From a virus (lineage: Duplodnaviria; Caudoviricetes): a stretch of DNA of 59,264 nucleotides. Under the pieces are notes generated by a model. That model had not been told where the DNA came from and searched no databases. It saw nothing but the letters and a program-made list of their open reading frames with translations. The stretch is taken from positions 1 through 59,264 of the IMG/VR virus record IMGVR_UViG_3300009481_000013; one strand, 5' to 3'. This document shows, piece by piece, positions 2,134 through 41,628 of the stretch. The first letter of the stretch is position 1, and every line of letters begins with the position of its first letter. The translations under genes were made by a program, and so were the position numbers.

Positions 2134-2390
2134 TGCTAAAACAAAATTATAGAAAAGGCGAGCTTCTTTACATTAAGAATGAGGATCGACTACCTATTTC
2201 ATTGAAAAATTGTCAAGGAAAAATGGGAATCTTCCTTTTTGAAGAGCGTAAGGCAGAAAAAATTGGTCGTTATGAAGTTTATGTCTTAGGTGTGGGAAAA
2301 AGGTGGTTTGCATCGTTCGAGATAGAGCCTTTTGCTCCAAGTTTGCACCGAGAGGCACCAACAGAGCTTGATGGGACGAACGATGTTTAA
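2133..2390 (+). CDS. small SH3/KOW-like protein
   Basis: YRKGELL…MGIFL…YEVY. Confidence 0.65.
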   Translation: MLKQNYRKGELLYIKNEDRLPISLKNCQGKMGIFLFEERKAEKIGRYEVYVLGVGKRWFASFEIEPFAPSLHREAPTELDGTNDV

Positions 2391-2682
2391 AAAAGGTGAC
2401 TTAGTTGCGCTTGAACATTGCAAAGATCCCAAGTGTTGCGATAAGAAAACATCTTACTTGTGTGGTTGTTTAGACGTTGAATGTTTCAAAAAAGGTCACT
2501 TATTGATTGTTCTGAAGAAAGCGAATACTGCATATATACCCCCACCAATCAATCAAATCAAATATAGAGAAGGTGAATGGGATAGATATGAACTCTATGA
2601 CCTTAATCGGTATTGGAAATCAAGAAAAAAAACTACATTTTACAGTATACATTTAAAATTGGTCAATAGAAATGAGGTCTAA
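2383..2682 (+). CDS. small SH3/KOW-like protein with Cys-rich insert
   Basis: MFKKGDLV start at 2383, six Cys in the first loop. Confidence 0.65.
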   Translation: MFKKGDLVALEHCKDPKCCDKKTSYLCGCLDVECFKKGHLLIVLKKANTAYIPPPINQIKYREGEWDRYELYDLNRYWKSRKKTTFYSIHLKLVNRNEV

Positions 2683-2941
2683 AGTGTCGGCATTATCAGG
2701 TGGAAGAGTATCTTATAACGTTCCTCAAGAGCATAAAAGAGGTGATCTGGTCTTAACGACAAACTCATTTAGTCGAGATAAAAAGTGGTATGGGATAGTA
2801 TTGAATTGTAGAGCTTATATGGGCACTCAGTACCGACTTTACGATTTGTTGGTCTTAAGTTTAAATAATAGAAATGTAAAAGTCTTGGTTAGAAATACAG
2901 AAATAGAGAAAGCTTCAAAGAAAGGAAACAATAGTGTTTGA
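2672..2941 (+). CDS. small SH3/KOW-like protein
   Basis: HKRGDLV…YGIVL…YDLL. Confidence 0.65.
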   Translation: MRSKVSALSGGRVSYNVPQEHKRGDLVLTTNSFSRDKKWYGIVLNCRAYMGTQYRLYDLLVLSLNNRNVKVLVRNTEIEKASKKGNNSV

Positions 2942-3557
2942 TTTTATTGTTAATATATTCTCAAAAAAAGAAAACCAACATCCGCAAGATATATTAAATG
3001 CAAAGATGTTTGAAAACTACCCAGGTTTAAAAATGAAGTTCCTCGGCTATACACGAGGTCACAAAAGAGTATACTCAAGTGTTGGCATTTGTGAACATCT
3101 TGCCTATCTGGATGCTTCCACTAAAGAAGATAAGATGAATATTTTGCAAAATCGTATAAAACGTGCTGGTTTGAGTGAATTTGGCTTATGTCCTCAGACA
3201 GTTCTTGATGGTGAAGGGTTTTTGAATATTCCTATGATTGATTTTGTTGGCAATCATAATGCTAACTATTTTAAAACGATGGCTCAAACGATGGGCGACA
3301 AGCTGCCTTTCTTGAGAGGAGCTAAGCTTTTTATTTTTCACAGCGGAAACAGTTATCATGGCTATGTCGATAAGATGATTGATTCAGAGAACTATCTCAA
3401 GTGGGGCAACTTCTTGCTTGAATCATCTGGAGTTGATCGCGCCTGGGTTAAGATGGGTATGCGGTGCCTTAGATGGTCTTTGAGTAAAGAAAATAATCGT
3501 AAAAAGCCTTCTCTATTTCAGGAGTTTGAGATTGGCACTAGGACATCAAAATGCTAA
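2934..3557 (+). CDS. archaeo-eukaryotic primase (AEP)-like protein
   Basis: IPMIDF, FHSGNSYHGY (AEP motif II-like SGxxxH) and VDRAW…LR motifs. Confidence 0.55.
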   Translation: MFDFIVNIFSKKENQHPQDILNAKMFENYPGLKMKFLGYTRGHKRVYSSVGICEHLAYLDASTKEDKMNILQNRIKRAGLSEFGLCPQTVLDGEGFLNIPMIDFVGNHNANYFKTMAQTMGDKLPFLRGAKLFIFHSGNSYHGYVDKMIDSENYLKWGNFLLESSGVDRAWVKMGMRCLRWSLSKENNRKKPSLFQEFEIGTRTSKC

Positions 3558-4622: not shown

Positions 4623-5042
4623 ATGAGTAATGAAAAACCACATTGTCTTTCAGATTACTGGCAGATTGAACACAATCGTCGCTTGAGCGCAAAAAATACA
4701 AAGATGCCAAACAGAATGAACGATTCGTCAGCTCAGCATTATATCAAAAAAGGAAAAGTTCCTCACAAAAGATATGGCAAGACTTGTGGCAAATACAATC
4801 CAAAATACAGGCGAGTCAAGAAAGGCAACAAAGCTATTTTTCAGTACGGAGAAGTAGTATCTGTTAACAATCGTCAAGGATATATTCGAGATCATTATGA
4901 ATATGATGGTGTTATCTTTTACCAAATCGCTTGGCGTGTAGGAGATTCACAACTTTCTTGGTACGATAGGCATATCGGAAATGACAAAGTTCCTAGTCGT
5001 GGCTGGACCGAAGCACGTTTTATCAAGAGAATCGATGAATAA
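4623..5042 (+). CDS. hypothetical protein with C-terminal SH3-like domain
   Basis: AAGGA RBS; FQYGEVV…GYI…YQIAW. Confidence 0.6.
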   Translation: MSNEKPHCLSDYWQIEHNRRLSAKNTKMPNRMNDSSAQHYIKKGKVPHKRYGKTCGKYNPKYRRVKKGNKAIFQYGEVVSVNNRQGYIRDHYEYDGVIFYQIAWRVGDSQLSWYDRHIGNDKVPSRGWTEARFIKRIDE

Positions 5043-5265
5043 GACTAACCTCATAGTTGACATTGAAGCAAAAGGTATGTATACGGAACAAGAATTGCGT
5101 TATTTGTCAGAACAGATTTGCAACTTCCTTTCTGGACCCCACGGAAATGGAATTACTGTAGGTACTCGTTACGACAAGAGTGATAAAACATTTGAAGTGT
5201 CAGATGTAAATATCAAACACCCTTCAAGCCTTGTATGGACAGCAAGCTGGTTCTCAGGTGATTAA
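5035..5265 (+). CDS. hypothetical protein
   Basis: ORF coupled to neighbours. Confidence 0.5.
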   Translation: MNKTNLIVDIEAKGMYTEQELRYLSEQICNFLSGPHGNGITVGTRYDKSDKTFEVSDVNIKHPSSLVWTASWFSGD

Positions 5266-5537
5266 TGGCTAGAATTTTCTTCTTTACTAAACAACCTATC
5301 GAGATTGTCAGAATTCTTGACGGAAAGCTTGATGATTGCAGATTAGAAAAGCACCCCATTCGTTTAATAAATGGGGAAGAATATGTTTATAGTTATTGCA
5401 AATTTCGGAAAATAAGATTTAGAGAAGATGGTCGTCGATATCTAATGATTTATTTAGAATCAGAATTTGAATATTTCCCAGCCATAAAAGTAAGAAAGAT
5501 CTTTGATGATGATGAATGTTGCCCTGACCAACGATGA
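5265..5537 (+). CDS. hypothetical protein
   Basis: ORF coupled (TAATG). Confidence 0.5.
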   Translation: MARIFFFTKQPIEIVRILDGKLDDCRLEKHPIRLINGEEYVYSYCKFRKIRFREDGRRYLMIYLESEFEYFPAIKVRKIFDDDECCPDQR

Positions 5538-15959: not shown

Positions 15960-16241
15960 GTGCCCGACTTCAGAAAAATGACCAAAAAGTTTCTTTTAGG
16001 AGAAACTAAAAGTAAAGAGCCAGGAATGATGAGTCATCTTCAAGCTCTTGAAGAGACGCTCGGCTTATTGCAGCCTCGCTCTAAATCCGATTCCCGTCGC
16101 GTTGAGATTGCGCGGGAACATTTGCGTGGAATGAAGCGTCAATATCGTCGCATTATACAAGAGAATAAAAAGTTGCAAGAAAAGGTTAGCCTTTTAGAGG
16201 AAGAAAAAGCAAATGCACTCATTGAAGAAGATTATAAATGA
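15960..16241 (+). CDS. coiled-coil hypothetical protein
   Basis: ORF with heptad pattern. Confidence 0.6.
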   Translation: MPDFRKMTKKFLLGETKSKEPGMMSHLQALEETLGLLQPRSKSDSRRVEIAREHLRGMKRQYRRIIQENKKLQEKVSLLEEEKANALIEEDYK

Positions 16242-19200
16242 GGGCGGCGCCGCTGCCGTTGCTCTAACAAATAAAAAACTAGCTCCACATCCAAACAATG
16301 CTGAAAGAGATTTGCAATATGGCAAAATCTCGGATGCTGAGCTGGATTCTATTTTTCCTAGAGAATATGGAACTATGACAGATGCTTCTGACGATACATA
16401 CGTTGGAAGGATTTTTCACGCTCTTGGTTCGCAAGGATTGATAGACACTTCTCATTCTCCCTCATATTCGATGGGCTCCACACGTCTGGCAGCACTCAAA
16501 AAATATGGTCGTGGTTCTATCGGGCTAGACAAGTATGAAACTGATGACGTAATCGCAACCGTAAGCGGAAAAAAGACTGAATATGGTGATTTAGATATTG
16601 ATCTTCTTTTTACTGGCGACAAAAAGTCTATTGCCAACGCAATTGAAGCTATTGACCCGTCTGTTTATGCAGCAGCAGCTGGAGGTCCCAAAGCTGTTGC
16701 TGTAGCTATTCGAATTGGAAACAAAGTTATCCAAGTAGACTTGGTTGATATCTCTGAAGGTCAAGCGGCACAGGACTTTCTTTGGAAGAGCAGTTTTGTA
16801 GACTTGGCAGCTGGAGTTAAAGGTGCTTTTTCTATTATTTTGCTGCGAGCAGTAGCTTCTGTTATGGAAATTGGTCCTAGTGATACCCTTGAGTCTCTTA
16901 TTCAATATGCTCAAGACAATCCAGAGTCTCGATTTGCCAAAGATTTCAATAAAAAGCTAAAACTAAATTATCAACCAGTTGGTTCGCGCTTTTCTCTTGG
17001 TTCAAAAGGTTTAAAGCTTATTGTAGATTTAGAAAAGCCAAGTAAAAAAGATCCTAACAAAAAAACTCAATCAAAAATCGATTTTGAAGATGCAGTGCGT
17101 CAAGGATACGAAGATTTAGATGAATTGGCGCAAATAATTCTTCAAAATCGAAATGCTGACTCATCTACGATTTATAGTGCAACGAAACTAGCTAGTTTTA
17201 TCAAAAAACACGTCCCTCAAAGCAAAATCAATCTGATTTGGAGCGCTTTTCTAAAAAGTACTAAAGATACGCTTGAAGGAAAAATCGATCAACACGATTA
17301 TGAGACTGGAATGGCTTTTTTGGGCAATTTACTCGGAACTGAGTGGACTCCTGAAGCAGCTGCAACCTTAAATGAAGCTCGTGAAGATATTGGGCGATTT
17401 ATTGGTAAAAATAAGTTCTCCAATAAGAATATGCTGTTGCTATTGAGGGCTTTGGTTTCCGAATCGGGCAACGAAGGAAAGACCAGTTTTGATATTAAGC
17501 TTTCAGAAAATCCAGCGGTTGATATGGTTGAGAAAATGGATTCATCGTTCAGTCACTTTGGTATCGACCCAGAAGGCAAGTTCTTTATGGAAACCAGCAA
17601 TAGCGGTCCTGTAACGAAAGAGAACTTGGAAGAAAAGTTCGGAACTAAGCCAGAGTTTTTCCACGATATCTATGAATCCTTCAAATGGTTGTCCAACAGT
17701 AAAGAGGTTCAAGGTTCTCTTCAAGAAATTTTCAAACAAATCGGACCAATTAGATATGATGCTGAACTCTTTCCAGTTTTGACTCACGAAGGTGATGCTT
17801 CAGGGAATATTGTATTCGTTGGCACACCTTATTCGAGAGAGAAGCTTGGAAGAGTTGGTGGTTTCGTAGTATTTAAAGCTCAAAAATGGAGTCCTGAAGA
17901 GCTTAGTTGGTATCGACCAGAACCAGCAGAGAACGTAGCTTTGGTGAAGATGATTAAACAGTCTTCTTTCTCAGGCAACTGGGCTGGAGATTGGAGAGTT
18001 TATACCAACGAAGAAGATATGAAACACAACGTCACGCTTCACGTTGAGTTTGATGAGTTGTTGTCAAGCTATTTGAGCAGTGAAGAGAGCTTCAATAAAG
18101 CTCTGGCACTTGTCTCTACACGTAAAAACAATCCCGATAAGGATGAACTGCTCTTTTCTCTAAACAGAATACGTGAGGTGTTGCAAGATAAGCTTAATTC
18201 TTATGCTTCTGGAGCTGAATCTATTCTAGGTGGTGAAGGCTCTTACATCGAAGGCGTTGTCCTCCGAGTAAAGAAGAACAATGGTGATATTTTCGAAGCA
18301 AAAGGGACTTCATACAAGTTTGATGAGCACAAGGAAGAACTTTGGGAGGATCGCGTCAATGTACTTAATCTTACCAAGACTTTTGAAAAGAAACTAATGA
18401 TTGAGGTTCTAGAACTTAGAACTGATCATCCAGCAACATTGAACAAAGCAATCAAGCAAGTGTCCCTTGAGTTTAACGCTACCTCAAGCGGCGATGAAGC
18501 GAAGGTGGAGTTTATTAGAGAGCTGTTACCTGTTATCACCGACAAGACAACTGGGTTTGATAAAATAAAACCTGAAACAATCAACCTAATCAATGAAACA
18601 GAAGCTCTTTACAAAGAACTCCTTCAGCAGTTTGAAGCGAACAAGCCAAATCTCGATCCTGACACTATCAGGAAAACCCAAGCTTTGTATGACTCTTCTG
18701 CTGAGTCTCTAAGTAAGTACAAAGCAGCTGCCAGCTCTACTCTTGAGAGTATGTCTTATTTCGTATACCTTATTGGTTTAACACTGAACAGAAGAATCGA
18801 CAGATTTGTGAATTTTGGAAGAACTAAGCCACGCCCAGAGAAGAAAGATGTTCCTAAAGTTATCTTTTGGAATGGCAGGGCTCAACCTTGGCACAAAGGT
18901 CACGATGCTATGGTGCAGAAAGGCAAAAGTATGCTCAATACACTTGATGCTGAAGCGGTAATGATTATGATTGTCAAAGGTGGTAAAGCTTCTCAAGACA
19001 AATCGGTAAATCCATTGTCAGAGTCAGATCAAATCAACTTGATTAGTGCAATCTACGAAAATGATCCGCAAGTTATCGTTTCAGACAAGATTTTGAAGCG
19101 TTCATTCATTGGAGAGATTGCAAATGTTGTCTACAGCACTGGATATGAGGTTGTAGGTTGGCTTGCTGGTGCAGATAGGATCGATAGCTACAGAAAAGGA

Positions 19201-20364
19201 TTGAATTCTTTTAATCCCGAAATGTGGGAAAAAGATCACGCTTATTCGCCATTTGACGCCGACGATGCTGGACACTCCACAGTTAAGATGATCGAGACTC
19301 CTCGCGTCATGAGCGGAACCAAGGCGCGTGAGCTAGTGAATCAGGTAGAGGTTCCTGAATGGATTGATGCTGTAGCTCCAGATGGTATTGGGGAAGCTGC
19401 TCAACAAGCTTATGTCGAAGTTTATGACAAACTTCGAAACCCTGAGCTTTCTGAAATAGTGTTTGATGCTCTTGAAGAGATGTCATCAGCTGGTGGTGGT
19501 GCTGTTAGTGGTTATCCTGGTGGTTTCAAAGACCCAGACGCAGATGAGGGCACTCTAATCAGAGAAGAGGAAACAGATGGTGACGAACTACTTAATACAG
19601 AGGTAAATGAAATGGATCGTGAAGTATTTATGAAAGAAATGCAACTTAGGAAGTTTATTCGTCGTGCAATCAATATTGTCGAGAGTAAGAATCAAAAACA
19701 GCGCTTTTTGCAAGAATCTAAAGTGCGAAAGTACGTACGAAAGCTTATTCTTGAAGCAGAAGAAGATCATCCTCACGATTCTACCGGTATCAATGTTCTG
19801 GAAGACCTTTTGAAGAAAATCATCCCAGTATTTGAGAAAGATTACAAATCGCTCACTACGGATGCAAACCAACGTAAATCTTTCCGTTCTCACGTTATCA
19901 ATGCAGTGCAAAATTCTCTTGCTCCTTCACGAGCTGAGATTAGTATTAATCCAGAAGCTCCACAAGGACCTGCTGTAGGGATGACTGAACAGGAAGATGA
20001 ACTTGAGATGGATATTCCTACTGAAAGGGATCTTGATCCTAAATTTATCGATATTGATCCAGCATCTAAAGAAGCTCCAGAAATTGCTCCAGAAGAGAAG
20101 TTTGGCATTCCTGGTGAAGACGAAACAGGACGTAATGTCGCTATGAGAAGTTGGGATCAAGTAGAAACTTCAGTTATTGATGCCTATAATGTTTTGTCAA
20201 ATGCACAGGATCGGGAAATGTTTTATGATTATCTTATTACAAATCTAAAACTATATTTCGATAAAATGGAAGAAGAACTTTCTCCAGGTGTTCAGGAACC
20301 TGAGTCAGAAATCTATCAGCAACAAAAAACAGCAGAACAACCTTCTTCTGATTTTAATCTTTAA
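16213..20364 (+). CDS. multidomain protein: Pol-beta NTase + RNA-ligase-like + HxGH cytidylyl/adenylyltransferase + acidic C-terminal domain
   Basis: MGS…YGDLDIDL…QVDL; VEKMDS…DAELF…IEGVVLR…EAKG; GRAQPWHKGH…GADR…SGTKAR. Confidence 0.75.
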   Translation: MHSLKKIINEGGAAAVALTNKKLAPHPNNAERDLQYGKISDAELDSIFPREYGTMTDASDDTYVGRIFHALGSQGLIDTSHSPSYSMGSTRLAALKKYGRGSIGLDKYETDDVIATVSGKKTEYGDLDIDLLFTGDKKSIANAIEAIDPSVYAAAAGGPKAVAVAIRIGNKVIQVDLVDISEGQAAQDFLWKSSFVDLAAGVKGAFSIILLRAVASVMEIGPSDTLESLIQYAQDNPESRFAKDFNKKLKLNYQPVGSRFSLGSKGLKLIVDLEKPSKKDPNKKTQSKIDFEDAVRQGYEDLDELAQIILQNRNADSSTIYSATKLASFIKKHVPQSKINLIWSAFLKSTKDTLEGKIDQHDYETGMAFLGNLLGTEWTPEAAATLNEAREDIGRFIGKNKFSNKNMLLLLRALVSESGNEGKTSFDIKLSENPAVDMVEKMDSSFSHFGIDPEGKFFMETSNSGPVTKENLEEKFGTKPEFFHDIYESFKWLSNSKEVQGSLQEIFKQIGPIRYDAELFPVLTHEGDASGNIVFVGTPYSREKLGRVGGFVVFKAQKWSPEELSWYRPEPAENVALVKMIKQSSFSGNWAGDWRVYTNEEDMKHNVTLHVEFDELLSSYLSSEESFNKALALVSTRKNNPDKDELLFSLNRIREVLQDKLNSYASGAESILGGEGSYIEGVVLRVKKNNGDIFEAKGTSYKFDEHKEELWEDRVNVLNLTKTFEKKLMIEVLELRTDHPATLNKAIKQVSLEFNATSSGDEAKVEFIRELLPVITDKTTGFDKIKPETINLINETEALYKELLQQFEANKPNLDPDTIRKTQALYDSSAESLSKYKAAASSTLESMSYFVYLIGLTLNRRIDRFVNFGRTKPRPEKKDVPKVIFWNGRAQPWHKGHDAMVQKGKSMLNTLDAEAVMIMIVKGGKASQDKSVNPLSESDQINLISAIYENDPQVIVSDKILKRSFIGEIANVVYSTGYEVVGWLAGADRIDSYRKGLNSFNPEMWEKDHAYSPFDADDAGHSTVKMIETPRVMSGTKARELVNQVEVPEWIDAVAPDGIGEAAQQAYVEVYDKLRNPELSEIVFDALEEMSSAGGGAVSGYPGGFKDPDADEGTLIREEETDGDELLNTEVNEMDREVFMKEMQLRKFIRRAINIVESKNQKQRFLQESKVRKYVRKLILEAEEDHPHDSTGINVLEDLLKKIIPVFEKDYKSLTTDANQRKSFRSHVINAVQNSLAPSRAEISINPEAPQGPAVGMTEQEDELEMDIPTERDLDPKFIDIDPASKEAPEIAPEEKFGIPGEDETGRNVAMRSWDQVETSVIDAYNVLSNAQDREMFYDYLITNLKLYFDKMEEELSPGVQEPESEIYQQQKTAEQPSSDFNL

Positions 20365-21629: not shown

Positions 21630-21658
21630 TTGACAAATAGCGCGCCGCCTGCTACAAT
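21630..21658 (+). promoter_or_regulatory. sigma70-type promoter
   Basis: TTGACA-17-TACAAT with TG extension. Confidence 0.8.
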
Positions 21659-21831
21659 GCGTTGGACTTAGGAGAAAGAGATGAAATTACAACCTATTTT
21701 TGGTAAAATGCAAAGAGATGGTAAAAATAAGAATGGATTGATGATGTTTAAATGCTTAGAGTGTGGACGTAGGTCTTCTTGGGCAAGGCAAGAACATAAT
21801 CACCCAGAGGTTGAAGAAAAGTAAGAAATAT

Positions 21832-21909
21832 GCGCCCAAAGTGTCAAGAGGCTCTGTATACCTGTTTTGTACTCAGGAGGACCGAGTTCGAGACTTGGTG
21901 GGTGCTCCA
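21832..21909 (+). tRNA. tRNA-Thr(UGU)
   Basis: cloverleaf, GCGCCCA/TGGGTGC, TTCGA T-loop, CCA. Confidence 0.8.
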
Positions 21910-21961
21910 AGAAGATGTGGAATAAGGTGATAACCACAGTTAAATAAAAACGACCTACTAT

Positions 21962-22259
21962 GGGGGATCCATGGTTTCGACAGAGTAAGGAGAATGATTC
22001 ATACAAGGAAGCCAGCCAACAAATGCTTTAAATCAGTGTTGGAAAGTATAACTGCAAACGATAATGTTGAACAGTTCGCTCCTATTGCTCTAGCAGCGTA
22101 GAAAGCTGGGCGTCAACTGCCTGGGAACAGAAAGTTGAAAAGAGAAGAATGAATGGTAGAATGGAATGTCAGTTGCTGGACTCAAACCAGCTAACCTTGT
22201 AAGTATTTGAATTATTTGAGTTATTTTGGACAGCGGTTCGACTCCGCTATCCTCCACCA
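21962..22259 (+). ncRNA. ssrA: tmRNA; tag ANDNVEQFAPIALAA* (22054-22101)
   Basis: GGGGGAT/ATCCTCC acceptor with G3:U70, TTCGAC, GGAC-AGCGGTTCGACTCCGCT T-arm, ACCA; internal tag ORF ending ALAA. Confidence 0.95.
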
Positions 22260-22312
22260 GAGTGAAAGCCAGCAAGAACTAGGCTTGACGCATCGGAGAG
22301 ACGATGATTTAT

Positions 22313-22387
22313 AGGTTCGTAACTCAGAGGCAGAGTGCTACTTTTACACGGTAGAAGCCGAGATTTCGAAATTCTCCGAACCTACCA
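22313..22387 (+). tRNA. tRNA-Val(UAC)
   Basis: cloverleaf, CCA. Confidence 0.88.
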
Positions 22388-22484
22388 TAGGCGTGCAGTG
22401 AAGGGCGGGATTGACTATCGTCCAGTTCATAGCCTAGTCAGCAATGAATCCTGACACTGCACGCCAACGATTTTAAGAGATGGC

Positions 22485-22513
22485 TTGACAAGCCTAAAAT
22501 GATCTGTTAGAAT
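22485..22513 (+). promoter_or_regulatory. sigma70-type promoter
   Basis: TTGACA-17-TAGAAT, TG extension. Confidence 0.8.
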
Positions 22514-22570
22514 GTTAGAAAAGAAAAGGAGAAAATTATGGGCACCGAACCAACGTGGTAAACAAATAGT

Positions 22571-22646
22571 GGCTTAGAGATCGAAGAGTCGAAATATCTG
22601 CCTGTCGAGCAGAATCAAACAGGTTCGAGTCCTGTCTAGGTCGCCA
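22571..22646 (+). tRNA. tRNA-Asp(GUC)
   Basis: CTGC-CTGTCGA-GCAG anticodon arm, T-arm, GCCA; weak D arm. Confidence 0.8.
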
Positions 22647-22777
22647 TCCCGTTAGCAGAGACGGGCAAGATGAGTTCGAGGTCTGACGGCATTTCCACGC
22701 TGCTCACTCATCAGGGATACGATACAACAACCGCCAAGTGGTGTATCCTGGGTAATGCTGATAGTTGTTAAATTTTT

Positions 22778-22856
22778 GGGGTATGGGTCTGCCTGGGGTG
22801 GACACCTCGCTTGCACCGAGGATCTCAACAGGGTTCGAGTCCCTGATACTCCACCA
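22778..22856 (+). tRNA. tRNA-Ala(UGC)
   Basis: cloverleaf with G3:U70, ACCA. Confidence 0.9.
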
Positions 22857-23124
22857 TTGCGTTAGGGAATCCACACTGGGGACAGTGCCCGCGCAATCAA
22901 ATTACCTCGCGTTGGTTTAAAATTGATGCGTTTTTAAGGGAAAACGCGCTCGCTCCTCGCGGAAGCTTAGAGATTGAACGAGCATATACGATCTGAGGAT
23001 GTTTTTTAGATAAGCCACTGGCGGCGGGTTGAAGCTCTTCGGAGATTATCCAAAGTAACTAGCTTATGACGGGAAAGCCACCGTGTGTTCGGCTTGACAA
23101 GGTACGGAGAGACGTCGCATTTGT

Positions 23125-23202
23125 GGGTGTGTAGCTCAGCCAGGTTAGAGCAGTCGTCTGATACGCGAAAGATCATAGGTTCAAATCCTATCATACCTAC
23201 CA
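23125..23202 (+). tRNA. tRNA-Ile(GAU)
   Basis: cloverleaf, ACCA. Confidence 0.9.
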
Positions 23203-23204
23203 CA

Positions 23205-23276
23205 GCGGAAGACGTTGGTTCGATTCCAACTATCACAACCATAGTGATATCGTTTAGTGGAAGGATATCCGCACCA
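23205..23276 (+). ncRNA. circularly permuted tRNA-like RNA (T arm before D arm)
   Basis: GCGGA-AGAC-T arm-TATCAC/GTGATA-D arm-TCCGC-ACCA. Confidence 0.75.
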
Positions 23277-23505
23277 TTTTAAGGAAAAAGAGTGACAAAC
23301 TTGGAAAAAAGCATTGCACGCATTAGCAAATGAAGAAGCCTAGATTTCCTGAAGGGAGAGTAATTAAAGAAGGCGGAAAGCATACAGATTATTGTGGATG
23401 CAATGACTGCCGATTAGTTGAAAAGACTAAAGAAGAATTTCGTAGGGCATTGTTTTTTGCCCGAATAGAGGAGAAGAAGAGATGTTAGAAAGTGACTTTA
23501 TTTTT

Positions 23506-23583
23506 GGGCTGAAAGCTCAAGTGGTCGGAGCGCTGGTTTGAAACGCCTGAGATTAGAGGGTTCGAGTCCCTTTTAGCCCACCA
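23506..23583 (+). tRNA. tRNA-Phe(GAA)
   Basis: cloverleaf, ACCA. Confidence 0.88.
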
Positions 23584-23587
23584 ATTA

Positions 23588-23669
23588 GTCTATAGTGAAC
23601 GATGGACGTTCAGTGCTCTCATAAGGCACGGAGAAATCACCACTGGTTCGATTCCAGTTATAGGCACCA
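23588..23669 (+). tRNA. tRNA(CAU) elongator Met/Ile2 with extended variable loop
   Basis: GTGCT-CTCATAA-GGCAC, 12-nt variable region, ACCA. Confidence 0.8.
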
Positions 23670-23719
23670 AAGGAGAAGGTTTTAAACTTTGCACTCCTTA
23701 AAAAATGCAAGGTTATTGT

Positions 23720-23797
23720 CGCGGGTTGGTGTAGTCCGGTCTAGCATTTTGGGTTCATGTCCCAAAGCCGTCAGTTCAAATCTGGCACCCGCAACCA
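23720..23797 (+). tRNA. initiator tRNA-fMet(CAU)
   Basis: C1:A72 mismatch, GGG/CCC anticodon stem, ACCA. Confidence 0.88.
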
Positions 23798-23852
23798 ACA
23801 TCGAAAGCCGTAGATGTAGACTAGGTTTGACACTGGGAGAGACTGGAACTGT

Positions 23853-23930
23853 GGCGTGGTAGGATAACTGGAATAGTCCCCCTGATTTTCACTCAGGATG
23901 ATGCGAGTTCGATTCTCGTCCACGCTACCA
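23853..23930 (+). tRNA. tRNA-Glu(UUC)
   Basis: cloverleaf, ACCA. Confidence 0.88.
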
Positions 23931-23948
23931 AAACAAGGAGAAGACAAG

Positions 23949-24179
23949 ATGGATGATTTGGAGTTGTATTACCTCGAACGAGGAACGCGAATTATGAAGG
24001 TCAAGGAAGAAGCAAAGGTTCTTTTGAAGGAATACTCAGACATCCTTGAAACTTCTAAGCCAGAAATCAAGAGCAACCTTAATGAGTTTGCTTTAGAAGA
24101 GGCTGGTATTAAAATCACTGATATGGTGATTTACGATGAAGGCTCTATTAGTCTTGAATTTGGGAAGATGGTAGATTAA
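23949..24179 (+). CDS. hypothetical protein
   Basis: AAGGAG RBS. Confidence 0.55.
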   Translation: MDDLELYYLERGTRIMKVKEEAKVLLKEYSDILETSKPEIKSNLNEFALEEAGIKITDMVIYDEGSISLEFGKMVD

Positions 24180-24252
24180 AATGTTTAAGTGTCTTAACGA
24201 TTACCCTAGTGAAGTTCAACCTCAGCAAACGCTGGACGTTGTTCAATACTGT

Positions 24253-24328
24253 AGGGATATGGTCTAACTGGTAAGACACTTGATTTTGATTCAAACCGAT
24301 GTGGGTTCGACTCCCTCTACCCCCACCA
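24253..24328 (+). tRNA. tRNA-Gln(UUG)
   Basis: cloverleaf with some acceptor mismatches, ACCA. Confidence 0.78.
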
Positions 24329-24332
24329 TTAA

Positions 24333-24408
24333 TGCCGATTTGCTTAGTGGACTAAAGCGGGGCACTCTGAATGCTCTATCATCGGTTCGAATCCGATATC
24401 GGCTGCCA
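24333..24408 (+). tRNA. tRNA-Gln(CUG)
   Basis: cloverleaf, GCCA. Confidence 0.88.
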
Positions 24409-24540
24409 CTATGAATAAACTGACACCAGAAAAACTTGAAGAACTAAAAGAAGAGGGTCGCCAGCTCTCAAAAGAGTTAGATAAGCAAATAAGACAAATG
24501 TGGAACATTCCCGAAGAACAAATGAAAAGAAGGTGTAATT

Positions 24541-24846
24541 GTGGGAAATGTTGTTGATATATTTAAGAATACTTTAAAGGAGCCAAAAGAAGGAAAAATT
24601 AAGCCTGCACATGAGGATGAAATTTCCATCTTAAATATGGAACAGATTCAGAGAATCTTTTATGAAGCTTTAATTTCGCAAGAAGAAAAGCCACCATCTG
24701 AAGAAGATTTGATTTCTATTTTGTGTTGGGCGCGTGAAACTACTATCAGAGTAGGCATTTTGAACTTGATTTACCAAGGAGAAGTAAAATTTAAATGGTG
24801 TAATAAAGAAAAAGATCTTATAGTTGAAAAAATAAAAGATAAATAG
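24541..24846 (+). CDS. hypothetical protein
   Basis: ORF, AAGGTG RBS. Confidence 0.55.
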   Translation: MGNVVDIFKNTLKEPKEGKIKPAHEDEISILNMEQIQRIFYEALISQEEKPPSEEDLISILCWARETTIRVGILNLIYQGEVKFKWCNKEKDLIVEKIKDK

Positions 24847-24850
24847 GTAT

Positions 24851-24939
24851 GGAAGTTGTCCGGCATGGACGAGGACACCGGTTTGAACCCGGCTGCGGCT
24901 TAATCTCCGTCAAGAGTTCGATTCTCTTAGCTTCCGCCA
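24851..24939 (+). tRNA. tRNA-Ser(UGA)
   Basis: long variable arm, G73 CCA. Confidence 0.85.
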
Positions 24940-25013
24940 GTCCCAGAGAACTACTTGCTACCCAACTTGGACGGGAAAAAACGTAGTGACAGATTGGAGA
25001 GACGATCGCGAGT

Positions 25014-25101
25014 TAAGGGTTGGCAGAGTGGTTTAATGCGACCTCCTACAGGGAGGTGTCCCGAGACGGACCGTGGGTTCGAATCCCACACCCTACACTC
25101 A
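25014..25101 (+). tRNA. atypical class II tRNA with ACA anticodon (Cys decoder or pseudogene)
   Basis: ACCTC-CTACAGG-GAGGT arm, long variable arm, frayed acceptor, no CCA. Confidence 0.6.
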
Positions 25102-25107
25102 TTTTAC

Positions 25108-25199
25108 GGAAGGCTGACAGAGTCAGGTTGAATGTAGCGGGTTGCTAACTCGTAGGTTGTGAAAGCTTCCCAAGGGTTCGAATCCCTTGCCTTCCTCCA
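25108..25199 (+). tRNA. tRNA-Ser(GCU)
   Basis: long variable arm, CCA. Confidence 0.88.
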
Positions 25200-25233
25200 A
25201 AAACAAGAAGCAGAACTTGTCAAATCTGTGTGT

Positions 25234-25311
25234 GCGTCGTCGGTCTCAATGGTGGGACATCACCCTTCCAAGGTGAACATCAGAAGGGTTCGATCCCCTT
25301 ACGACGCTCCA
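25234..25311 (+). tRNA. tRNA-Gly(UCC)
   Basis: cloverleaf, U73 CCA. Confidence 0.88.
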
Positions 25312-25314
25312 TTT

Positions 25315-25389
25315 GCGAGAGAGTATCTATGGTTGATTGTCTCGTTGCCAACGAGAAGCTTGCGAGTTCGAATCTCGTCTCTCGCTCCA
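25315..25389 (+). tRNA. tRNA-Gly(GCC)
   Basis: cloverleaf, U73 CCA. Confidence 0.85.
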
Positions 25390-25392
25390 CAC

Positions 25393-25469
25393 GCCTTTGT
25401 AGCTCAGTCAGGTAGAGCGTTCCCTTGGTATGGGAAATGTCGTTAGTTCAAATCTAATCGGAGGCTCCA
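25393..25469 (+). tRNA. tRNA-Thr(GGU)
   Basis: cloverleaf, CCA. Confidence 0.9.
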
Positions 25470-25474
25470 ATATT

Positions 25475-25819
25475 ATGAAAGTTTTAGTTTGTGGCGGTAG
25501 GAAATACGACGATCAGGAATATGTGTCACAAGTTCTTGATATGATTCACAGCGATTATCCCATTACTTGCGTTGTACACGGCGCAGCAACAGGTGCCGAC
25601 ACATTTGGAGAATCTTGGGCAAAAGCAACCGGTATTGCTTTTAAACCCTACCCAGCAGATTGGGATACTTTCAAACACGCAGCAGGTTCAATCAGGAACG
25701 CTGAAATGCTAAAAGACAACCCAGATATCGAGCTAGTTATTGTGTTCCCAGGCAACAACGGAACCAATAATATGCGAAACAAAGCAGAAAAAGCAGGCAT
25801 TAACGTGTACTGCGCATAA
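25475..25819 (+). CDS. SLOG family (DUF2493/YspA-like) protein
   Basis: VLVCGGRKY…VHGAATGAD…YPADW…AGSIRN…FPGNNGT. Confidence 0.85.
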   Translation: MKVLVCGGRKYDDQEYVSQVLDMIHSDYPITCVVHGAATGADTFGESWAKATGIAFKPYPADWDTFKHAAGSIRNAEMLKDNPDIELVIVFPGNNGTNNMRNKAEKAGINVYCA

Positions 25820-27344: not shown

Positions 27345-27419
27345 GGACAGGATCCCGAACGATTAGGGTCTGGATTGCAAACCCAGTATTAGTGAGTTCG
27401 ATTCTCACCCTGTCTTCCA
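27345..27419 (+). tRNA. tRNA-Cys(GCA)
   Basis: cloverleaf, U73 CCA. Confidence 0.85.
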
Positions 27420-32612: not shown

Positions 32613-32689
32613 TTGCAGGTAGTATTAAAAAATAAAACGTCGGTCTGTTAAACCGAAAGATGCGAGTGGGAGTCTCGCCCTGTAAGCCA
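32613..32689 (+). tRNA. tRNA-Asn(GUU), degenerate D/T loops
   Basis: TCGGT-CTGTTAA-ACCGA arm, GCCA. Confidence 0.65.
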
Positions 32690-32840: not shown

Positions 32841-33257
32841 ATGAAGCCAGCTTGGGATCAAATTTGGATGGACTTAGCGGTAGCAATATCGCAACGTTCA
32901 AATGATCCTAAGTTCAAAGTCGGCGCTGTAATCGTCACAAGAGACAATGAGTCTGTTTTGTCGCTCGGTTACAATGGAGACGAAAAGGGTGGAGACAACA
33001 TTAGAGACAGCTTGGAAACAGGATGCTCTGGATTCATTCACGCTGAAGTTAACGCAGTTGCTAAAATGAACTATGTTGACCCAAGAGAGAGAAAGATTTA
33101 TCTGACTCACTCACCTTGCCTTGTATGTGCTAGATTGCTCGTCAATGCAAGAATTTCAGAAGTCATCTTTAGGGAAGAATATAAATCAGACACGAAAGGA
33201 CTTGACTTACTCAGAGAACGTGGTATAGTAGCTAGACAGTCAGAATACTGGGAATAG
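32841..33257 (+). CDS. dCMP deaminase
   Basis: KVGAVI…GYNG…HAEVNA…SPCLVC. Confidence 0.9.
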   Translation: MKPAWDQIWMDLAVAISQRSNDPKFKVGAVIVTRDNESVLSLGYNGDEKGGDNIRDSLETGCSGFIHAEVNAVAKMNYVDPRERKIYLTHSPCLVCARLLVNARISEVIFREEYKSDTKGLDLLRERGIVARQSEYWE

Positions 33258-34176: not shown

Positions 34177-34255
34177 ACAGGTGTAACTCAATTGGATTAA
34201 GAGTAACGGGCTTTTACCCTGGAAGTTGTGGGCATCCAATCCACCACCTGTACCA
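34177..34255 (+). tRNA. tRNA-Lys(UUU), degenerate T loop
   Basis: ACAGGTG/CACCTGT, loop CT-TTT-AC, ACCA. Confidence 0.7.
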
Positions 34256-41118: not shown

Positions 41119-41628
41119 ATGAACCAAGCTGAACTACAAGCTTTAATTGAAAAAGATTTCACGTTAAAGCAAATTACGAAAGAAACCGGGAAAGCTTCTA
41201 CAACTATACGATATTGGATTAAGAAGTACGGATTAAAACTGAAGAGGGGTCGACGCGGAAAACACCCAAAAGATTTTGTTGTTCAAAGAAGTTGTACTTG
41301 TGGTGAGACCAACCCTGACAAGTTTTACGGAAACAAAAAAAGTATCTGCGGTAAATGTCACAACAAGTATACCCTAGAAAAAGGAAGAGAAAACAGAAAG
41401 AAATCTATTGAATATCTTGGTGGTGAATGTGTGATTTGTAGTTGGAAAAAGTTTGGAAGTGGTTTTGACATTCACCATGTGGATCCAAATGAGAAAGATG
41501 TTGCCTTTGCTTCGATGAGAAGTTGGTGTTGGGAGCGAACGAAAAAAGAACTTGACAAATGTGTTCTTCTATGCAAATGTTGTCATGCGGGTGTTCATAG
41601 TAACGATTTGAAAATAGACCAGAATTAG
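41119..41628 (+). CDS. HNH homing endonuclease with N-terminal HTH
   Basis: TTIRYWIKKYG; CVIC…DIHHVDP…CVLLCKCCH. Confidence 0.85.
   Translation: MNQAELQALIEKDFTLKQITKETGKASTTIRYWIKKYGLKLKRGRRGKHPKDFVVQRSCTCGETNPDKFYGNKKSICGKCHNKYTLEKGRENRKKSIEYLGGECVICSWKKFGSGFDIHHVDPNEKDVAFASMRSWCWERTKKELDKCVLLCKCCHAGVHSNDLKIDQN

Follow-up and report, generated by a model that had tools for sequence, protein, structure and literature searches.

Two kinds of small phage RNA are among the closest described counterparts of the element considered here. The put RNAs, according to the work that describes them (PMC9378689), are cis-acting antiterminators that bind RNA polymerase; they are about 70 nucleotides (nt) long, comprise two long irregular stems and a triplex, and are known from about ten sequences. 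Theta ribozymes, for their part (PMC10879173), follow transfer RNAs (tRNAs), fold as a nested double pseudoknot and have their catalytic C in J4/2. The present study concerns a short repeated motif in a 59,264-nt viral contig of the Caudoviricetes (IMG/VR record IMGVR_UViG_3300009481_000013). The contig was analysed in its entirety (‘the window’), is rated ~33% complete, and carries on its + strand 26 tRNA genes and a gene for transfer-messenger RNA (tmRNA), as called by ARAGORN; three sequencing runs are listed for it, all of DNA. The four repeats of the motif in this window are genuine copies of a short RNA element, strongly conserved and made of two hairpins. The preliminary description of this DNA, which spoke of a ‘four-copy’ motif, was correct for the window but understated the extent of the family, which is large and phage-wide.

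A covarying two-hairpin RNA at tRNA boundaries

Each copy is present in the sequence at the coordinates collected in Table 1, with pairings of its two helices (P2 and P3) that match those first described, and all four follow the common scheme GA-[5-bp P2]-GAC-R-[3-5-bp P3, closed by G-C, loop GAGAGA] (bp, base pairs). The P2 helix is AAGCC/GGCUU in two copies, AAGCC/GGUUU in one and ACUAC/GUAGU in one. The placement reported earlier also holds when tRNA ends are taken from ARAGORN: the gaps between copies 1-4 and the next tRNA are 6, 9, 6 and 6 nt, and copies 1, 3 and 4 begin 4-9 nt past the CCA end of the tmRNA or a tRNA. The string GGAGAGAC occurs four times in the 59-kilobase (kb) window, always inside a motif copy (1.34 occurrences are expected by chance, and four of 100 shuffled sequences reach four), and the looser pattern TGAC-N3-9-GAGAGA matches five times, at the four copies and at 33077, against a chance expectation of 1.27. 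Two covariance models built from homologous copies, R1 and R2, score the four copies at 40.9-61.0 and 35.7-55.5 bits, respectively, while the next best sites in the window reach 6.3 and 11.4 bits.

Comparison with homologs bears out the proposed covariation of P3. In an alignment of 23 copies made with MAFFT (A1), from which R1 was built, both sides change in four of the five pairs, 96% of P3 cells are paired, no slid register comes close, and none of 500 shuffles reaches the observed score. Because the rows of A1 were chosen for a perfect P2 and at least three P3 pairs, it overstates the percentage of pairing but not the variety of P3 pairs. In a model-fitted alignment of 96 copies (A4), 122 cells show double changes, against 28.7 in shuffles. 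P2 is less variable, with the compensated types AAGUC/GACUU, ACGCC/GGCGU and ACUAC/GUAGU. Where a cell departs from Watson-Crick pairing, G·U greatly prevails over A·C (in P3, 15 to 3 in one set of copies and 18 to 3 in the 96-copy set; in P2, 24 to 1 in the latter), and the fold therefore belongs to the strand shown. That strand is the sense strand of the adjoining tRNAs and of most adjoining genes, and the motif folds as RNA on it. The GA 5' and the GAC 3' of P2 may permit tandem G·A pairs. In its essentials, then, the motif is what it was first taken to be, a recurring, covarying structured RNA at tRNA boundaries.

One structural element proposed at the outset, a pseudoknot between the bases just 5' of the motif and the P2 loop, is attributable to chance: over 43 copies, the longest stretch of complementarity that the 12-nt 5' flank shows to the P2 loop has a mean length of 3.19 bp (shuffled loops, 3.29 bp), no copy reaches p<=0.05, and the four copies of the window give shuffle p values of 0.34, 0.24, 0.10 and 0.36. 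When single sequences are folded, P2 and P3 together form the minimum-energy structure only in copy 1 (z = -2.88), and copies 2-4 show no significant stability (z = +1.1, +0.3 and -0.1), so that the support for the structure is comparative and not thermodynamic.

The motif was compared with known RNA families using Infernal and Rfam 15. Over 21800-25600 no family matched, whether at the gathering score or at E<=10, and the only hits were tRNA, tmRNA and chance matches; self-cleaving classes absent at both thresholds include hammerhead, twister, twister-sister, pistol, hatchet, hairpin, glmS and VS. In 33 homolog loci, scanned at the gathering score, the matches were confined to tRNAs, one permuted tmRNA and one int-alpA RNA, with no known self-cleaving ribozyme among them. 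The permuted tmRNA (4976-5287 of another motif-bearing viral contig) lies ~360 nt downstream of a motif copy. The earlier judgment that the topology differs from that of the hepatitis delta virus (HDV) ribozyme, a nested double pseudoknot (P1, P1.1, P2, P3 and an optional P4) whose P1 begins where cleavage occurs, stands, in that candidate P1 pairings are no better than those of shuffled loops (p<=0.05 in 0 of 43 copies) and no HDV-family match appears at E<=10; in copy 3, just 3 nt separate the 5' strand of P2 from the 3' strand of the candidate P1, which leaves no room for an HDV P3/L3. A hammerhead fold, a three-way junction with CUGANGA and GAAA cores, was considered, as GA-[stem]-GA recalls the flanks of its stem II, and rejected, because there is no conserved CUGA 5' of the GA (alignment columns 10-12 are variable) and no third stem. 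Likenesses to RNase P helix P4, the Ro-binding site of Y RNA, k-turns and CsrA sites were considered and dropped; the Rfam scan was negative. The four copies are not among the terminator-like sites listed in the window and their 3' flank is only mildly U-rich, so that an intrinsic terminator, a G+C-rich hairpin with a U tract after it, was set aside, as was a riboswitch, because the downstream genes are diverse and unrelated and include tRNAs. A literature search, outside which lay the motif lists in supplements, found no description of the motif, and the accessible part of the genome paper of one cultured carrier, PhiM9 (PMC4621102), does not mention it. The family is new to the catalogues searched.

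Extent of the family and its genomic settings

Three pattern scans of IMG/VR define the family. The first (CTTGAC-N3-9-GGAGAGAC) gave at least 116 loci, many of which combine a hairpin in the spacer with GAAAGYC upstream; among the matches listed, 29 of 116 loci score at least 25 bits with R1. The second (GAAAGCC-N4-34-GGCTTGAC) added 84 new loci that were scored (a further 29, L205-L233, lay outside the scoring), of which four reach 25 bits, the matches being mostly chance or ordinary promoters. When the first scan, these four loci and one cultured phage are pooled, the AAGCC/GGCUU type comprises at least 44 copies in 36 sources, and R2 was built from those 44 copies. A third scan, with the variant GCGTGAC-N3-9-GGAGAGAC, gave at least 115 new loci; in the first 100, which were scored with R2, 96 copies of a second, ACGCC/GGCGU-type form were found in 82 loci. 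Their P2 is ACGCC/GGCGU in 39 copies and ACGUC/GGCGU in 16, the loop is GAGAGA in 93 of the 96, and the linker is GAC (96 of 96 listed) followed by A, G or U; in the first type, GAC is present in 43-44 of the 44 copies. Where the first type has TTGAC, the second carries GTGAC.

Across the family the length of the P2 loop is free, from 6 to more than 50 nt, and the P3 stem has 3-6 bp with a fixed G-C closing pair. Genomes carry one to four copies, usually at a single locus: contigs of 279, 169 and 139 kb have a single copy each, a 42-kb genome rated 100% complete by CheckV has two side by side, one 13.6-kb contig has three, and the window has four. Units consisting of P3 only also occur, in tandem in Pseudomonas phage Itty13 and singly at loci L389 and L115.

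The motif is carried by nine cultured phages, which infect gamma-, beta- and alphaproteobacteria and cyanobacteria. In Pasteurella phage Pm86 (L354) the motif lies in an untranslated leader, where a strong promoter next to the repressor gene precedes it by 530 nt; in Mannheimia phage 587AP2 (L361) it again occupies a leader beside the repressor gene, at a site that the depositors annotated as a promoter from a consensus scan. Synechococcus phage MinM2 has two tandem copies in a divergent intergenic region, ahead of an HNH gene. The motif is found upstream of a holin or terminase gene in Pseudomonas phage Itty13 (one full copy and two adjacent P3-only units), Ralstonia phage Heva (L371) and Morganella phage IME1369_02. 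The copy of Sinorhizobium phage PhiM9 is divergent, that of Rhodobacter phage RcCWillis is antisense to both annotated neighbours and adjoins the 3' end of the integrase gene, and Rhizobium phage RHph_N2 is a further carrier. The P3-only pair of Itty13 (L370, 1676-1714), with loops GAAAGA and GAGAGA, is ~250 nt upstream of the full motif and within an annotated coding sequence of the opposite strand; in Heva, the motif and the gene for the small terminase are separated by an inserted transposase gene of the IS200/IS605 family (2235-3305). BLAST matches, which stand outside the model scoring, suggest further carriers among phages of Ralstonia, Planktothrix, Providencia and Pasteurella. Of two other BLAST leads, Aeromonas phage 4_4572 gave no model match at E<=0.1, and Pseudomonas phage XD2 gave only a weak P3-like match of 9.7 bits.

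Prokaryotic genomes served as controls. The first pattern, run over 185,579 species genomes, matched 120 loci, in which P3 pairing is chance-like (76 have one pair and five have five or more); by inspection, as distinct from model scoring, the upstream half is missing in all 24 loci with at least three P3 pairs, and none of the 120 is a true copy. R2 matched one of 151 alphaproteobacterial genomes, with two copies, and found no true copy in five other genomes; one locus from a Hyphomicrobiales genome (L364) lacks the GAGAGA loop. Complete E. coli genomes gave no blastn match to the Pm86 copy. The motif is thus a large, phage-specific family of short structured RNAs, spread across many unrelated phages: an RNA of ~45 nt with ~20 near-invariant bases, common to phages of gamma-, beta- and alphaproteobacteria and of cyanobacteria.

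Genes for tRNAs are present in 13 of 34 motif loci and in 9 of 193 control loci that match the pattern only (odds ratio 12.7, p = 4e-7). Altogether 22 copies end 2-16 nt ahead of a tRNA and five start 4-9 nt past the end of a tRNA or tmRNA; the motif heads tRNA arrays in L093, L113, L115, L166 and L053, and is flanked by tRNAs on both sides in the window, L039 and L063. This enrichment bears on how phage tRNA clusters are expressed and matured. Most copies, however, lie not beside tRNAs but ahead of diverse protein genes, among them those for a primase-polymerase, a helicase-methylase, terminase subunits, portal, minor tail and head-tail adaptor proteins, DNA polymerase, a UvsX-like recombinase, exonucleases, an amidoligase and HNH endonucleases. 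The start codon is often 6-31 nt past P3, and 31 of 63 nearest starts of open reading frames (ORFs) fall within 31 nt. The nearest downstream ORF, taken from stop to stop, shares the strand of the motif in 82 cases and lies opposite it in 30, a count that is noisy in GC-rich DNA and in which several ‘opposite’ assignments are contradicted by annotated same-strand genes. Among 44 copies, 22 have A as the first base (+1) of the 3' flank, which contains little G and is enriched in U at +3, +5 and +6.

In L354 and L361 (1240-1540 in both), and also in L026, a conserved untranslated leader of ~290 nt adjoins the repressor gene and precedes tRNA genes; it has the word GCTCTTTAA near its start, then conserved blocks, and the motif at its end. 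No Rfam family matches this leader at E<=10. The word resembles the boxA consensus. This boxA-like 9-mer lies on the same strand, 210-250 nt upstream of a P3 that is itself boxB-like in size, in these three loci only; the window shows no excess of it.

Neighbouring genes and signals in the window

Table 1. Copies of the motif and adjoining features in the window
Feature	Position	Strand	Details
Motif copy 1	22264..22306	+	R1 61.0 bits, R2 55.5 bits; GA 22264-65; P2 AAGCC 22266-70 / GGCTT 22282-86, 11-nt loop; GAC 22287-89; G 22290; P3 CATCG 22291-95 / CGATG 22302-06, loop GAGAGA 22296-22301
Motif copy 2	23073..23115	+	R1 42.4 bits; without upstream tRNA; GA 23073-74; P2 AAGCC 23075-79 / GGCTT 23091-95, 11-nt loop; GAC 23096-98; linker 23099-23103; P3 ACG 23104-06 / CGT 23113-15, loop 23107-12
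Motif copy 3	23803..23846	+	R1 40.9 bits; GA 23803-04; P2 AAGCC 23805-09 / GGTTT 23824-28, one G-U pair, 14-nt loop; GAC 23829-31; A 23832; P3 CTGG 23833-36 / CTGG 23843-46, two G-U pairs, loop 23837-42
Motif copy 4	24948..25007	+	R1 46.6 bits; GA 24948-49; P2 ACTAC 24950-54 / GTAGT 24983-87, fully compensated, 28-nt loop; GAC 24988-90; A 24991; P3 GATTG 24992-96 / CGATC 25003-07, loop 24997-25002
Consensus sigma-70-type promoter	21630..21658	+	TTGACA-17-TACAAT with TG; consensus match only; heads tmRNA/tRNA region, ~630 nt upstream of copy 1
Phage tmRNA gene	21962..22259	+	ARAGORN; Rfam RF00023, 99.4 bits; CCA end 4 nt ahead of copy 1 GA
tRNA-Val	22313..22387	+	ARAGORN, Rfam; begins 6 nt past copy 1
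tRNA-Ile	23125..23202	+	ARAGORN, Rfam; begins 9 nt past copy 2
tRNA-Met	23720..23797	+	ARAGORN, Rfam; ends 5 nt ahead of copy 3 GA
tRNA-Glu	23853..23930	+	ARAGORN, Rfam; begins 6 nt past copy 3
tRNA-Ser	24851..24939	+	ARAGORN; ends 8 nt ahead of copy 4 GA
tRNA-Cys call, unusual anticodon ACA	25014..25098	+	ARAGORN; begins 6 nt past copy 4; Rfam tRNA only 33.2 bits, in the E<=10 scan

The tmRNA gene that heads the tRNA region of the window is of the one-piece form and encodes the tag peptide ANDNVEQFAPIALAA. The tRNA model of Rfam also scores above gathering (38.5-44 bits) at 22571-22643, 27345-27416, 32613-32686 and 34177-34252, where ARAGORN calls nothing; these stretches may be extra or degenerate tRNA genes. 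Past tRNA-Val, at 22388-22470, ~50 nt are enclosed by a long-range stem of 11 bp, with ATTTT after it (seen by eye only), and a consensus promoter lies downstream of it at 22485-22513. A gene-free interval of ~215 nt (22857-23072) between tRNA-Ala and copy 2 holds a terminator-like hairpin at 22908-22930 with a run of T, and no consensus promoter was found within it.

An ORF of 1383 amino acids (16213-20364) lies just upstream of the tRNA region, its sole PHROG match being cytidyltransferase-like, at residues 873-1075. Small ORFs with Cys-x-x-Cys pairs, recognized by eye only, are scattered in tRNA regions (21681-21824 in the window, and L113/L358, at ~1599-1706 of the latter). An HNH endonuclease gene is situated within the tRNA region of the window at 41119-41628 and has homologs in the tRNA-rich motif loci L053, L063 and L093; HNH genes also lie directly 3' of the motif in MinM2 and L047.

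Possible roles and comparison with known phage RNA signals

As a working interpretation, which we hold tentatively, the motif is a putative factor-recognition hairpin on nascent polycistronic RNA, comparable to nut and put sites. It would be transcribed in the sense direction inside polycistronic phage transcripts and be recognized by a conserved trans-acting factor, which might be the host RNA polymerase or Nus factors, a conserved ribonuclease (RNase) or a phage protein; the folded hairpins would then load onto, or modify, the transcribing polymerase, which could thereby pass the pauses and terminators of tRNA arrays and other long, partly untranslated units. A recognition signal is suggested because the stems are weak while the sequence is near-invariant across distant hosts, and because the GAC-R-P3 hairpin occurs alone or in tandem; the sense orientation and the single locus place that signal on the transcript. 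The leaning toward a nut- or put-like role comes from the two-hairpin form, from the early-leader position in Pm86 and 587AP2 (with the boxA-like word), and from the position before long, partly untranslated tRNA regions; heads of tRNA arrays, the Pm86 leader, the divergent intergenic region of MinM2 and sites upstream of holin or terminase genes are the leader-like positions that can be cited.

A number of observations weigh against this recognition-signal interpretation. When the ORFs of the window of at least 50 amino acids were compared by tblastn with 35 motif loci and 193 control loci, no protein was found to be consistently encoded near the motif, the sole exception being the HNH endonuclease at 41119-41628, which has matches in three tRNA-rich motif loci and one control locus. 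Many copies are located mid-operon, ahead of portal, minor tail and head-tail adaptor genes; in L357, L358 and copy 2 of the window the motif is 140-170 nt downstream of a strong terminator and not upstream of one (copy 2 follows the hairpin at 22908-22930 by ~140 nt). The spacing of 2-16 nt from a tRNA, seen in 22 copies, is not required by antitermination and suits processing at least as well. The motif of RcCWillis is antisense to both annotated neighbours, the boxA-like word is restricted to three loci of Pasteurellaceae type, and the whole genome of HK022, whose put RNAs (putL and putR) engage the zinc-binding domain of the RNA polymerase beta' subunit, gave, when searched with R1 with filters off, a best score of 7.7 bits, in the terminase gene region and away from the early-promoter regions. 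For copies mid-operon, copies past terminators and the tight abutment of tRNAs, a processing signal or a ribozyme would be roughly as good an explanation, and the ‘processing element’ of the preliminary description is among the candidate readings.

The same observations can be set against four other explanations. That the motif is a new class of small self-cleaving ribozyme, which would cut polycistronic phage transcripts beside tRNAs and genes in the manner of theta (HDV-like) ribozymes, appears unlikely. The pattern of conserved unpaired purines (GA, GAC and GAGAGA) between variable stems, with a peripheral P2 loop of variable length, is what such a ribozyme might show, and so are the phage-specific, sporadic, intergenic and strongly tRNA-associated distribution (13 of 34 against 9 of 193 loci), the 22 copies that end 2-16 nt before a tRNA and the five that start 4-9 nt after a tRNA or tmRNA, and a very wide host range that calls for no host factor. 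On the other hand, no Rfam ribozyme matches even at E<=10 and no known ribozyme lies near the motif in the 33 homolog loci; the one tertiary pairing that was suggested is attributable to chance; both helices are short and have little thermodynamic stability; the P3 hairpin can stand by itself (Itty13, L389); and there is no junction-closing helix, only two 5-bp hairpins and a 4-nt linker, an arrangement simpler than any known self-cleaving class. Recognition by an endoribonuclease of the host, either RNase E or RNase P together with the neighbouring tRNA, is a rather improbable alternative, in which the motif would punctuate transcripts, define the 5' terminus of the tRNA or mRNA that follows and leave a structured 3' end on the upstream RNA. 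Its close spacing to a following tRNA (2-16 nt) or start codon (31 of 63 within 31 nt) is consistent with this, as is a G-poor 3' flank with A at +1 and U at +3, +5 and +6; the A-U-U-U that directly follows P3 in several members resembles classical RNase E sites. The GC-rich members lack an A/U-rich flank, however, one or two sites per genome are few for a general processing signal, a plain guiding hairpin would need no near-invariant loop and linker, and the hairpins are too weak to block exonucleases.

The two remaining explanations are each very doubtful. A trans-acting small RNA or protein decoy, which might mimic a conserved cellular hairpin and, once freed by tRNA-processing enzymes, titrate a host or defence protein, would account for the tandem multiplicity (two to four copies, and P3-only tandems) and for the copy of RcCWillis, which stands alone and antisense to its neighbours; flanking tRNAs on both sides, as in the window, L039 and L063, would excise the motif, and its loop presumably resembles the GAGA-containing sarcin-ricin loop. 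Most copies, however, have an ORF 6-31 nt downstream, without a terminator or tRNA for release. An element acting at the level of DNA could be a promoter, with the TTGAC of P2 as its -35 box, or a single-stranded DNA hairpin for priming or replication. In keeping with this, GGCTTGACA is the -35 consensus and also heads both consensus promoters of the window, the commonest P3 geometry gives a 17-nt spacer, the 587AP2 site carries its depositors' promoter annotation, the motif lies just 5' of genes, and the G·T asymmetry is compatible with single-stranded DNA. The objections are that there is no conserved -10 and nothing A/T-rich after P3 in GC-rich members, that the spacing from TTGAC to the loop varies from 3 to 9 nt, that the second subtype has GTGAC and not TTGAC, and that covarying stems with G·U are unfit for duplex DNA recognition. 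A sigma-70 promoter, with -35 and -10 hexamers 16-18 bp apart, was rejected for the copies of the window, where the promoter scan lists none of the four: the tRNAs begin 20-25 nt past the TTGAC hexamer, at least 28 nt being needed, so that the start would fall 4-10 nt inside the tRNA.

With conservation of this degree across hosts, the element must either be in contact with a partner conserved to the same extent or have catalytic activity of its own. A speculative possibility is an undescribed class of RNA, catalytic or polymerase-modifying: the motif could be a minimal self-cleaving ribozyme by which phage tRNA and mRNA transcripts are punctuated, or else a put-like RNA of universal reach, able to reprogram bacterial RNA polymerase across proteobacteria and cyanobacteria without any protein. 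Under any of these readings the motif would be a new and compact component of the way phages express their genes, and it might serve as a portable tool, whether insulator, antiterminator or processing tag; the nine cultured carriers make bench tests possible.

Among known systems, the intercistronic RNase III sites of T7 are likewise conserved, structured sense-strand RNA signals between phage genes, but each is a long, irregular duplex, and they number about ten per genome within a single phage group, whereas the motif consists of two tiny hairpins, in one to four copies per genome, across many groups. The likeness to lambda-type nut sites, in which a boxA word directly precedes a boxB hairpin that an N protein binds, lies in a short 5-bp hairpin with a purine-rich loop and a conserved single-stranded word ahead of it, in an intercistronic position on the sense strand with one or two sites per genome, and in the leader of Pm86 and 587AP2, where the motif sits beside the repressor gene with a boxA-like word. 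It differs in that its loop hexamer GAGAGA is conserved across phyla, whereas boxB loops are N-specific and variable, that the boxA-like word is 210-250 nt away and in one phage group only, and that no N-like protein was identified. With theta and minimal HDV-like ribozymes (PMC10879173) the motif shares the character of a small phage RNA that directly abuts tRNA genes in arrays, but it has no supported pseudoknot and mostly precedes the tRNA. Like the put RNAs of HK022 (PMC9378689), it is phage-encoded, lies on sense nascent RNA with two stem-loops and very few copies per genome, and the put RNAs are found in early transcripts downstream of promoters and need no dedicated protein; in contrast to them, the motif has two 5-bp stems, another conserved sequence, and many copies that stand mid-operon or abut tRNAs.

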